Below, in pieces: positions 13,726-14,790 of a DNA stretch of 64,000 bases (position 1 is the first letter of the stretch; each line of letters opens with the position of its first letter). Position numbers and translations under genes: made by a program. Origin of the DNA: Campylobacter concisus (lineage in GTDB: Bacteria > Campylobacterota > Campylobacteria > Campylobacterales > Campylobacteraceae); assembly GCA_018371455.1 (NCBI GenBank), contig JAHAKV010000005.1, positions 32,158 to 96,157 of the forward strand. Reading direction: 5' to 3'. The notes beneath the pieces are model-generated. The model was not told where the DNA came from and made no database searches. It saw only the letters and a program-made list of their open reading frames with translations.

Positions 13726-14790
13726 GCAAGAGATAGTTAAATTTTATAAATTTAAGCCACACCTAAATTTCTCTTATCAAATTTTACTACCACATAAAAC
13801 AAAAGCAGTCAAATCCTTTGCAAAAAGCATTTTAAAGCGATAAAAACTACTCGCATTTTTACAAGAAAAACCAAATTTCACTTATTAAATTTAACCAGCT
13901 ATTAGGCAAAATTTAGCTCAAAGCACTCGCATAAACACTACAAATATCGATTTTACTCAAAAGAAGCTTTCATTTCTACTCTAGTATGCGGCTCTCACTC
14001 AGTCAAATTTCTGTAAAGCATCCATGCGAACGATAAAAAATCGAACAAATTCCAGCAAGCAAAAATTAAAATTTTATAAATTTAAGCTATAAACAAAGAA
14101 ATTTCTTGCTAAATTTAGCTCCGAATAAAATAAAAGCAGTCAAAAGATTTGCAAAGGGCACTTATTAAAGCTATATTTCTCTCGTCAAGTTCAGCAACCT
14201 ATTAGATGAAATTTAGCTCACGGCACTCGCACACGCACCATAAATTTATAAACTCGCAAGAAGTTCAAATTTACTTTATTAGATGGCGTTTGCTTGGTCA
14301 AATTTCAACAAAGCAACCCACGCTAGCGATGTCAAAATGATTAAATTCTGCTAAGCAAAGATTAAAATTTGATAAATTTAAGCTACAAATAATCAAGTTT
14401 CTTACCAAATTTGCCTACCACATAAAACCAAAAGTAGTCAAAACATTTTGTAAAAAGCATCATTAAAACGATATTCTTTTTGCCAAATTTATATCTAGCT
14501 CATAGGCAAATTTAGCCTAAAACTCTCATGCAAGCATATAAAAAACGAAATTTAAAAGTCGCAAGAAGTTTTAGGCACAGCGCTTTTGCGAGTGACAGCA
14601 AAATAATCAAATTCTGACAATGGAATTTAAAATTTGCTAAATTTAAGCTACAAATAATCAATTTTCTTGCCAAATTTAGCCTGCAATTAGACAAAATTTG
14701 GTTTCAAACACCCACACAAACACTTAAATTTATAAACTCACAAGCCACATCAATAAAGCAAACACTCTCGCGTAAATTTAGAAAATATAA
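13726..14790. repeat. Four degenerate tandem direct repeats (~260-340 bp units), non-coding
   Basis: Unit starts near 13726, 14064, 14359 and 14625 each open with attaaaattt[t/g]ataaatttaagc[c/t]a. Shared internal blocks include ctaccacataaaac...agtcaaa, tagctca.ggcactcgca and aaatttataaactcgcaagaagtt. Confidence 0.7.

Follow-up and report, generated by a model that had tools for sequence, protein, structure and literature searches.

In the Campylobacter concisus genome analysed here, gdhA (plus strand) and infC (minus strand) converge on a spacer of 1711 bp, running from the gdhA stop at 13172 to the infC stop codon at 14884-14886, in which the longest open reading frames (ORFs) are 60 aa. 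What fills this gap, and how did it arise? The original prediction had described a 1.7-kb convergent spacer free of ORFs above 60 aa, holding four degenerate 260-340 bp tandem repeats whose starts resemble the sequence 3' of a SUKH gene, and had proposed as possible origins the serial duplication of a cassette's 3' flank (for instance, relics of a decayed immunity-gene array), a family of non-coding RNA genes, or a recombination hotspot. In the window, by which we mean the whole 64-kb stretch of DNA under analysis, we recovered the spacer as described and an array that is real, although only three of its units are of full length and the fourth is short (~130-180 bp). We favour, at a probability of roughly 60%, the reading that this array is non-coding DNA in decay, produced when the tail end of a dead SUKH (SMI1/KNR4, immunity-type) cassette was amplified in tandem. 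The features that bear on this question are collected in Table 1.

Table 1 Features of the gdhA-infC locus and the neighbouring SUKH gene, in window coordinates
Feature	Position	Strand	Evidence
5' boundary of intact SUKH gene: promoter-like TTTGATAAAAT, then paired motif CAAATTTAGCAAATTTAAGGAG with ribosome-binding site	11012..11040	+	Sequence reading
Intact SUKH (SMI1_KNR4) gene, 190 aa	11046..11618	+	Pfam PF09346, E = 2.5e-9
Stop-codon paired motif of intact SUKH gene, GCGCAAATTTAGTAAATTTAGGC	11609..11629	+	Sequence reading, motif count
3' flank of intact SUKH gene, with two CTTTT(T)ATAAATTTA motifs (11646-11661 and 11686-11701)	11646..11711	+	Sequence
Possible decayed ribosome-binding site and ATG in this flank, AGTTTCGATATG	11700-11711	+	
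gdhA, 452 aa	11814..13172	+	Pfam ELFV_dehydrog
psiSUKH2, decayed second SUKH/SMI1_KNR4 gene	13173..13726	+	tblastn, E = 1.4e-13 and 2e-15
Hairpin with 14-bp stem, just past gdhA stop codon	13191..13221	+	z = -3.1; no U-tract
Unit 1, full length; start motif 13737-13757	13726..14045	+	nhmmer, 230.7 bits
Unit 2, full length; start motif 14066-14087	14049..14342	+	nhmmer, 251 bits
Unit 3, tail shortened	14345..14604	+	nhmmer, 186.8 bits
Unit 4, short form: module A (14613-14681) and module C (14662-14744)	14613..14744	+	nhmmer, 48.8 and 60.2 bits
Core ATAAATTTAAG, plus-strand copies in array	13746-13756, 14076-14086, 14372-14382	+	Exact match
Core ATAAATTTAAG, fourth copy in array	14723..14733	-	Exact match
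Inverted partial copy of unit-start motif, array end	14770..14792	-	Inverted repeats I1, I3, I4 and I6, 77-86% complementary
infC intrinsic terminator: 11-bp stem (14850-14875), then U-run	14841..14875	-	-15.5 kcal/mol, z = -4.55
infC, 172 aa	14884..15402	-	Pfam IF3_N + IF3_C

The array extends over ~1.1 kb and consists, head to tail, of three full units (320, 294 and 260 bp) and a short mosaic unit, all placed with a 297-position profile HMM built from the units themselves and searched with nhmmer. The predicted periodicity is borne out by exact copies of AAATTTnnTAAATTTAAGC at 13739, 14069, 14365 and 14630, corresponding to periods of 330, 296 and 265 bp. Comparing the units against the window with blastn, we obtained pairwise identities of 62-93% (E = 1e-8 to 1e-24), namely 62.6% over 326 nt for units 1 and 2 (E = 2e-23), 70% over 217 nt for units 2 and 3 (E = 6e-24), 80.7% over 109 nt for units 1 and 3 (E = 1e-19), and 92.9% over 56 nt for units 3 and 4 (E = 4e-14). 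Tandem Repeats Finder did not detect the array because identity between units lies below ~70%. Conservation is highest in the start motif (0.85 bit/position, vs. 0.3-0.7 elsewhere in the unit). Unit 4 lacks the middle module, and its junction between modules A and C is consistent with a deletion between two copies of CCAAATTTAGC within the unit, which lie at unit positions ~61 and ~138. The unit HMM found no copies at unrelated loci within the window or in the flanks examined, the best match in the rest of the window being an unrelated gene at 35401-35551 that scores at background level (14.9 bits). Neither PLSDB nor INPHARED contained a blastn match to the array, so no plasmid or phage origin is seen, and our literature search on this array returned nothing.

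Between gdhA and the array, ~550 bp are filled by psiSUKH2, a decayed second SUKH gene at whose stop codon the array begins. Its homology is clear for residues 74-196 (13376-13726), where it is interrupted by stop codons and frameshifts, and its frameshift-aware alignment scores 198.8, vs. 33.7 +/- 4.7 for shuffled proteins. The gene is decayed in all 20 strains tested, with lesions that differ between them. The intact SUKH gene shares homology with it at the 3' end and in the adjoining flank, with E-values of 3e-23 to 1e-5 in all but one of the 20 strains and of 5e-4 in the remaining one, and an HMM of the intact gene's flank aligns just past the pseudogene stop in other strains. In several strains, such as L005, L095 and L007, the alignment retains both the stop-codon motif and a second TTTTATAAATTTA 35 nt downstream; the 35-nt interval between these motifs appears to be missing from the lineage of the window. 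This pseudogene had not been recognised in the original prediction.

The intact SUKH gene is multi-allelic in C. concisus, with alleles of 190, 172 and 174 aa occupying the same locus across strains, and its boundaries carry the motif that links it to the array. The paired motif AAATTT-NNN-AAATTT occurs nine times in the window, seven of these occurrences marking either a boundary of the intact SUKH gene or one of the four unit starts; the 5' boundary, whose promoter-like TTTGATAAAAT would serve as the promoter of the gene, accounts for two of the nine AAATTTNNNAAATTT pairs. Every unit begins with the stop-codon motif of the SUKH gene, AAATTT-NNN-AAATTTAAG, in agreement with the proposed resemblance between unit starts and the sequence 3' of SUKH. 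The same type of motif (GAAATTTGATAAATTT) is found at the stop of SUKH orthologues in C. showae and another Campylobacter, which are single genes beside a PLA1 gene and not tandem arrays. Among the genes called at the C. concisus locus we found no toxin domain, the neighbours being a 309-aa protein with a weak PQQ_2 match, accC, gdhA and infC.

The gene lying between the two SUKH copies, gdhA, has a GC content of ~50%, compared with ~40% across the whole window, and was therefore probably acquired horizontally; relatives with 96-97% identity occupy a different gene context in other Campylobacter. The flank at 11646..11711, with its possible ribosome-binding site and start codon, may represent what was once the 5' end of the second SUKH gene, cut off from the rest by the insertion of gdhA. 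Both gdhA and infC have a hairpin of their own beside their stop codons (that of gdhA being a candidate terminator), indicating that the array is not needed for termination. A replication terminus or dif site behind the local GC-skew switch seen here was ruled out, since the locus shows no large-scale skew change around it and sits 24-156 kb from the start coordinate in complete genome records.

We also compared the locus between strains. Both psiSUKH2 and the array were present in all 30 distinct C. concisus alleles examined, with 2-6 units, spacers of 1178-1856 bp and mosaic arrangements of modules. Large indels and losses of whole modules separate copies within an array as well as arrays of different strains, and the short form made up of modules A and C recurs in many strains. 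In 13 of 16 strain pairs, the psiSUKH2 part of the spacer diverges at least as much as the 4-fold degenerate sites of gdhA (14.5% vs. 4.3% in one pair, and 3.8% vs. 0% in another). In L096, by contrast, gdhA differs at 40% of 4-fold sites while the pseudogene region has diverged less (20.8%), with array and pseudogene both retained, and pairs involving L093 and L095 point in the same direction. A small genome would not be expected to keep useless DNA for so long in every strain, L096 included, and some selection for the presence of the region could be at work.

The sequence of events that we favour would begin with an ancestral C. concisus locus carrying two or more tandem SUKH genes, of which the second would have been inactivated, probably by the horizontally acquired gdhA landing at its 5' end, and would survive as the pseudogene at 13173-13726. 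A segment comprising the last few dozen bases of the gene, the stop-codon motif and ~250-300 bp of downstream sequence would then have been duplicated head to tail, after which copy number may have kept changing through unequal homologous recombination, both between units and between short repeats inside them. Recombination between the internal CCAAATTTAGC repeats would yield the recurrent short form, and exchange of whole alleles between strains would add to the variation, giving the 2-6 units per strain seen today. We infer the order of these events, unequal crossing-over as their mechanism, and the absence of a host function.

The one demonstrated activity of the array is that of a recombination substrate. 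In strain GCA_050447405.1, a Rep3/integrase element of 31.6 kb is inserted precisely where unit 2 begins, the one event of integration into the array that we saw. An 11-bp core, ATAAATTTAAG (14076-14086 in unit 2 of the window), flanks the inserted element on both sides (attL, ...TTTTATAAATTTAAG followed by TCGC; attR, GCGACTTAATAAATTTAAG followed by CTAT), which places the boundary between element and chromosome between 14086 and 14087, and the empty site formed by the left part of attL and the right part of attR is reconstructed exactly by unit 2 of the window. The unit-start motif is thus the attachment site (attB) of a tyrosine-integrase element in one strain, and this site-specific plasmid integration, together with the range of unit numbers among the 30 alleles, sustains the suggestion of a recombination hotspot. 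The window contains seven exact copies of ATAAATTTAAG, against 0.27 expected, and four of the seven lie in the array.

The core of this Rep3 plasmid family with tyrosine integrase is near-palindromic (GCGACTTAA-TAAAT-TTAAGTCGC) and is matched by the unit-start motif; the predicted attP (GCGACTTAATAAATTTAAGTCGC) consists of 9-bp inverted arms around a 5-bp centre. Relatives of the integrase insert at TTAnAAATTTAAG-like sites elsewhere, and ~20 metagenome contigs carry such relatives; of the contigs that extend far enough downstream, most have a CTTAnAAATTTAAG-like junction ~125 nt past the integrase stop, with CTTA(T/A)AAATTTAAG-like junctions adjoining unrelated flanking DNA. One contig, L118, carries integrase, attP and rep in that order and appears to be the circular form of the element. 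Searches for the element by megablast in PLSDB, and for the attP palindrome in IMG/VR and in the locus sequences examined, returned no match. Linkage of integration to a tRNA was ruled out, as there is no tRNA gene near the site. An origin of the units as remnants of the element's arms was likewise rejected, their by-eye similarity to the rep-proximal arm being no better than that of control intergenic regions (p = 0.02-0.45).

Several other readings of the array were weighed against amplification of a dead cassette tail. Chance similarity within AT-rich intergenic DNA is a natural concern here, as AAATTT, with 518 copies, outnumbers every other hexamer in the window and inflates alignment scores, and the identity of units 1 and 2 lies only just above the ~60% below which the original prediction would have attributed the repeats to chance; nevertheless, inter-unit E-values of 1e-19 to 1e-24, HMM scores of 187-251 bits for the full units vs. 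at most 14.9 bits elsewhere in the window, and the recurrence of the same unit family in all 30 alleles refute it, leaving it a negligible probability. A more serious competitor, which we consider unlikely while giving it appreciable weight, holds that each unit is a whole SUKH cassette decayed beyond recognition, with the promoter and ribosome-binding site, the first ~70 codons and the last ~25 codons kept and the middle lost, such that the array would be a string of dead immunity genes. Several resemblances speak for this: the unit start is similar to the promoter/ribosome-binding-site region of SUKH (TTAAATTTGATAAAATTT...AAATTTAAGGAG), unit positions 129-172 align to the coding segment for PAKFTELLSKFEL, a translated match pairs AKFNQILSKFSL with AKFTKLLSKFDL (8 of 12 residues identical), and the unit tail is similar to the codons for FWQEMAQI followed by a stop. 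In addition, nhmmer aligns 154 positions colinearly to the 174-aa allele (10.5 bits) and reaches 14.6 bits with the 172-aa allele, and chained DNA alignment places SUKH cassettes in the top 0.6-18% of 1164 decoy tiles. However, the unrelated gene at 35401-35551 attains 14.9 bits with the same model, the best match to the 172-aa allele is not colinear with the other matches, and AAATTT is so common here that plausible-looking alignments arise easily. The units are moreover C-/A-rich on the plus strand, whereas the SUKH coding strand is G-/T-rich, and frameshift-aware protein alignment of the units gives z-scores of at most 1.9, compared with the score of ~199 for the true pseudogene. Tested in three ways, the case for units as decayed SUKH genes is suggestive at best. 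Of the proposed duplication of a cassette 3' flank or decayed immunity array, then, the flank origin is supported in outline by the pseudogene, the flank homology, the start of the array at a stop codon and the placement of the paired motif, while dead immunity genes as unit bodies stay conjectural.

The remaining readings assign the units a product or a maker. Under one of these, which we regard as improbable, the units are transcription units in which sigma-70 would recognise the start motif (TGnTAAATT or TATAAAT) as a promoter for an unstructured C/A-rich RNA, with a possible role as a sponge, a regulator or a read-through transcript antisense to infC. The start motif, besides being the best conserved part, resembles an extended -10 promoter and is closely similar to the putative promoter of the intact SUKH gene, and a promoter-consensus scan returned 12 promoter-like sites, vs. 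6.4 +/- 2.9 in shuffled sequences. On the other hand, plus-strand unit ends carry no terminator, the indels, module losses and divergence described above (the last, in most pairs, no lower than the synonymous rate) speak against a conserved product, and neither fold stability nor conserved structure was detected on either strand (z = -0.06 to +0.46 for single units; RNAalifold consensus energy of 0.00 for 21 distinct near-full units). The sole Rfam match, to a plant miRNA family (E = 0.6), is not credible, and we found no literature on small RNAs of C. concisus. By these measures, the units show no sign of being a structured-RNA gene family, and the proposal of a non-coding RNA gene family finds no support as far as structured RNA is concerned. 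Tandem intergenic repeats of ~300 bp are also the classic layout of type I toxin-antitoxin loci, and the units might on that ground be such loci or other small-peptide loci, similar to LDR and SIB/QUAD of E. coli or aapA/isoA of H. pylori. This is very unlikely: no ORF is conserved in frame or position among the 21 near-full units, no start-codon ORF recurs from unit to unit or strain to strain (frame and position of the open stretches vary), no Shine-Dalgarno sequence with a short hydrophobic ORF was visible by eye on either unit strand, and no stable antisense-type structure was found. An integron or CALIN cassette array was rejected as well, as unit boundaries read against the GTTRRRY core give GTTAAAT only in unit 1 and ATTAAAA in units 2-4, with no attC-type paired arms reported. 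It is also doubtful, if a little less so than the promoter-driven reading, that the integrase made or maintains the array, with recombination between att-like cores ~300 bp apart on sister chromosomes generating duplications and a multi-copy landing pad benefiting the plasmid. Such an origin would fit the presence of the core at every unit boundary and its concentration in the array, the integration precisely at a unit start, and the acceptance of varied TTAnAAATTTAAG-like sites by the integrase family. Against it, homology between units runs ~25-30 nt upstream of the core into the SUKH-like tail, so the repeat is not simply core-bounded; most copy-number differences are explained by internal-repeat deletions or allele replacements and not by gains or losses of whole units at the core; and the window holds no integrase homologue, with the element at the array site in only 1 of the ~10 genome and metagenome loci obtained via infC. 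Beyond the core, furthermore, the unit shares nothing with the sampled element ends, and a search of the sampled element sequence with the unit HMM gave no match. More speculatively, and with little expectation that it holds, the array might be kept by selection as an AAATTT-based landing pad or sink that steers Rep3/integrase plasmids into a harmless spot between convergent, self-terminated genes, or the units might be promoter-driven unstructured RNAs derived from dead immunity cassettes.

Returning to amplification of a dead cassette tail, we compared the locus with known systems. Immunity-gene arrays of SUKH/SMI1-KNR4 genes occur as orphan or decayed cassettes downstream of polymorphic-toxin loci, and the C. 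concisus locus is similar in having an intact multi-allelic SUKH gene beside a decayed paralogue, with units that begin with the cassette's stop-codon/flank motif; it differs in that no toxin gene was recognised beside SUKH among the genes called, that the units carry no significant SUKH coding signal, and that the amplified part appears to be mostly non-coding flank. In enterobacterial LDR and SIB/QUAD repeats, every unit has a conserved small ORF together with a structured antisense RNA, and while these repeats share with our array head-to-tail intergenic units of a few hundred bp whose copy number varies between strains, neither of these hallmarks is present here. Like bacterial minisatellite/VNTR loci and tandem duplications, in which unequal crossing-over brings about change, the array varies between strains in copy number and internal structure, and short internal repeats could explain the recurrent deletions; the unit, however, is far longer (260-330 bp) and more degenerate (62-81% between full-length units) than in typical VNTRs, and the alleles look ancient and exchanged between strains, not products of recent slippage. 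With secondary att sites of tyrosine-integrase elements and relaxed-target integrative plasmids, the integration site shares clean attL and attR sequences with an 11-bp core in common, a predicted attP of inverted arms around a short centre, and several chromosomal targets bearing one short motif, whereas its target is not a tRNA gene but a near-palindrome around the host's most abundant hexamer, present here in 3-4 copies owing to the tandem array.

These findings change no general principle, and their significance is accordingly modest. They reveal a family of integrative Rep3 plasmids that attach through a near-palindromic core built around AAATTT. The abundance of this hexamer in the host genome may explain how these elements find many insertion sites. 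For strain typing, the array offers a hypervariable marker in an emerging oral and gut pathogen. For annotation, the puzzling 1.7-kb gene-free gap of C. concisus would be read as a dead SUKH gene plus an amplified cassette tail, guarding against its over-reading as a new RNA family. Fragments of psiSUKH2 are annotated as "hypothetical protein" in the source records (e.g., P0161 and P0178).

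The convergent spacer between gdhA and infC measures 1711 bp, and an ORF scan found none longer than 60 aa, in line with the original prediction. Exact copies of the 19-nt pattern AAATTTnnTAAATTTAAGC lie within it at 13739, 14069, 14365 and 14630, so that successive copies are 330, 296 and 265 bp apart. Pairwise blastn of the units (u1–u4) against the window aligned u1 with u2 (62.6% identity over 326 nt, E 2e-23), u2 with u3 (70%, 217 nt, E 6e-24), u1 with u3 (80.7%, 109 nt, E 1e-19) and u3 with u4 (92.9%, 56 nt, E 4e-14), and unit profile HMM scores were 49–251 bits in the array vs. 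≤14.9 bits elsewhere in the window. These results confirm the four-unit tandem array as real, with a fourth unit shorter than the 260–340 bp predicted. The divergence among copies is too great for Tandem Repeats Finder, which did not detect the array.

Coordinates of the repeat units and of the genes and hairpins bordering the spacer
Feature	Position	Strand	Basis or role
gdhA	11814-13172	+	upstream border of convergent spacer
hairpin after gdhA	13191-13221		
unit 1	13726-14045		iterated profile HMM
unit 2	14049-14342		iterated profile HMM
unit 3	14345-14604		iterated profile HMM
unit 4 (short, two pieces)	14613-14681 + 14662-14744		iterated profile HMM
infC terminator hairpin	14850-14875		strong, z -4.55
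infC	14884-15402	-	downstream border of convergent spacer

Between gdhA and the array the spacer holds a dead second SUKH gene, which the original prediction did not recognise. With the intact SUKH protein (11016-11618, Pfam SMI1_KNR4) as tblastn query, residues 74-196 match 13376-13726 (E 1.4e-13 and 2e-15), interrupted by stop codons and frameshifts, and a frameshift-tolerant alignment of SUKH with this pseudogene scored 198.8 vs. 33.7 +/- 4.7 for shuffled proteins. The pseudogene is found in 20/20 strains tested, with differing lesions, and certain fragments of it are among the protein matches labelled "hypothetical protein" by their sources (P0161, P0178). Its stop codon is where the array starts, and for each strain the alignment of an HMM of the intact SUKH 3' end plus flank runs through the pseudogene 3' end into the array start (E 3e-23 to 5e-4). 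In several strains (such as those of loci L005, L095 and L007) the stop-codon motif is followed by 35 nt and then TTTTATAAATTTAAGC, two elements that appear to be fused in the window lineage.

The motif at the unit boundaries, AAATTT-NNN-AAATTT, has only 9 copies in the window, 7 of which lie in the intact SUKH 5' UTR (two, overlapping), at the SUKH stop codon and at the four unit starts. SUKH orthologues of C. showae and another Campylobacter end with this same motif, GAAATTTGA/TAAATTT; the unit start therefore corresponds to the last codon, stop codon and first flank bases of a real gene. The 25–30 nt ahead of the unit motif weakly resemble FWQEMAQI codons, and the start motif, which is like an extended -10 promoter in sequence, is the most conserved unit segment.

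In the best-supported reading, the tail of a dead SUKH cassette was amplified in tandem and is decaying as non-coding DNA, with unequal recombination and the exchange of alleles reshaping it; the motif at its boundaries, by chance or because it was kept as such, suits one family of integrative plasmids well as an attachment site. The predicted duplication of a cassette 3' flank, as the relic of a decayed immunity gene, accordingly stands in outline through the pseudogene, the flank homology and the motif. Extending it to the unit bodies, such that these would themselves be decayed SUKH genes, we consider rather unlikely. Visual inspection and one nhmmer alignment indicate colinearity of a unit with three parts of the SUKH cassette, namely promoter plus ribosome-binding site, the first ~70 codons and the last codons, with the coding segment PAKFTELLSKFEL aligned to unit positions 129-172; however, plausible SUKH–unit alignments come cheaply in a genome where AAATTT is very frequent, and statistical confirmation was not obtained. 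Frameshift-aware protein scores reached only z ≤ 1.9, chained DNA alignment placed three SUKH alleles in the top 0.6–18% of 1164 decoy tiles depending on scoring scheme, and under the same model an unrelated DNA-alkylation-repair/coaE region scored 14.9 bits vs. 14.6 bits for the best SUKH allele. Base bias is also opposed, the unit plus strand being C-/A-rich and the SUKH coding strand G-/T-rich.

The alternative of a ncRNA gene family was not supported as far as structured RNA is concerned: Rfam gave no credible match for the array, unit folds on both strands had z of -0.06 to +0.46, and RNAalifold on 21 distinct near-full units returned zero consensus pairs on either strand. ORFs within units are conserved neither by frame nor by position. 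The array gives no indication of being a family of RNA genes or a locus for small peptides. Both gdhA and infC have hairpins of their own, and the array is therefore unneeded to end either gene. Sigma-70-like pairs (TTGACY, 17 nt, TARAGT) lie on the minus strand at 14006-13978 and 14301-14273, an equivalent position kept in units 1 and 2.

As well as a relic, the array is a recombination hotspot, another possibility that the original prediction had raised. We identified 30 distinct gdhA–infC spacers of 1178–1856 bp with 2–6 unit starts each. Dividing the unit into modules by HMM position (A 1-73, B 74-134, C 135-214, D 215-297) revealed recurrent short A+C(+D) forms among strains, consistent with deletion between two CCAAATTTAGC copies at positions ~61 and 138. 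Some strains encode identical GdhA proteins, yet their arrays are only 77–83% identical to that of the window and differ in architecture, which points to old alleles exchanged between strains through recombination. Mismatch in the pseudogene part was at least as high as gdhA 4-fold-site divergence in 13/16 strain pairs, with no sign of purifying selection there; the most distant pair (L096) was reversed (20.8% vs. 39.9%), as were two others, which we attribute to differing recombination histories but which could instead reflect constraint.

In one strain (GCA_050447405.1; L094, L104) a 31.6-kb element lies between units 1 and 2, encoding a Rep3 initiator, ParA-type ATPase, EcoRI-type methylase, topoisomerase, TrbM, Toprim protein and tyrosine integrase. 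Its attL reads ...AAAATTTTATAAATTTAAG/TCGCAAC and its attR ...CACTGCGACTTAATAAATTTAAG/CTATAAAC; attL-left joined to attR-right gives window unit 2 exactly. The inferred attP, GCGACTTAA-TAAAT-TTAAGTCGC, has perfect 9-bp inverted arms. Integrase relatives are encoded on ~20 metagenome contigs, most of which, where downstream sequence suffices, show a CTTA(T/A)AAATTTAAG-like junction ~125 nt past the integrase stop, followed by unrelated DNA. In locus L118 the order is integrase, attP, rep, as expected for a free circular form. The 11-bp core ATAAATTTAAG has 7 copies in the window vs. 0.27 expected, 4 of them within the array; beyond it, units and sampled element ends share no further sequence, and the window has no integrase homologue.

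Elements of this family (~32–35 kb, with Rep3, ParA, TopA, TrbM, Toprim and tyrosine integrase; L094 7184-12519, L104 15524-21440, L111-L130) appear to exist both free (L118) and integrated, target near-palindromes resembling TTAnAAATTTAAG at numerous unrelated loci on Campylobacter metagenome contigs, and had no close (megablast-level) match in PLSDB. Elsewhere in the window, the flank downstream of a TOBE-domain gene (3041-3460), at 2840-2999 on the minus strand, opens with the hairpin CGGAGCAAATTTGCTCCG followed by TTTATAAATTTAAGC, an exact attachment-core copy, and shows weak similarity to unit 3 (62.6% over 171 nt, E 4e-5).

Among genome loci the closest is that of Campylobacter concisus H11O-S2 (gdhA 99% identical), and every retrieved C. 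concisus contig keeps the order accC, a 309-aa gene on the opposite strand, SUKH, gdhA, spacer, infC, thrS. With ~50% GC vs. ~40% for the whole window, and with nearest relatives (96–97% identical) that other Campylobacter carry among different neighbours (L012, L013), gdhA was probably acquired horizontally, and its insertion may have broken the second SUKH gene in two. A candidate decayed ribosome-binding site and ATG, AGTTTCGATATG, lies upstream of gdhA at 11700-11711, the rest of the pseudogene being downstream. The intact SUKH gene (11046-11618; also L132, L138) is multi-allelic at one locus, with 190-, 172- and 174-aa types, the 190-aa type showing 86–97% identity within type beside GdhA often identical between strains, as expected where diversifying selection or the replacement of alleles acts on an immunity-type gene. 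In C. showae and another Campylobacter (L141 2787-4163, L142 4323-5477), next to a phospholipase A1 gene, the gene preceding the SUKH orthologue encodes a 289-aa protein without a Pfam match and is perhaps fragmented in L142; this protein is a candidate SUKH partner, possibly a toxin. We found no description of the gdhA–infC array in the literature searched; the feature types it represents (pseudogene relic, tandem duplication, secondary attachment site) are known ones.

AAATTT itself is by far the commonest hexamer in the window (518 copies vs. 236 for the second), ~10x the estimate from base composition. Its density per kb is 6.5 in genes, where it is spread equally over the three codon phases (109/121/117), compared with 16.5 outside them and 26 in the array. 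RAATTY is the DNA-uptake discrimination motif of C. jejuni. It is also a methylation motif in that species, and AAATTT fits it; given this fit and its abundance, AAATTT could be an uptake or architectural signal. Its spacing in the window peaks at 22, 33, 43–44 and 54 bp, a phasing of ~10.9 bp, as phased A-tracts and intrinsically curved DNA would be expected to show.
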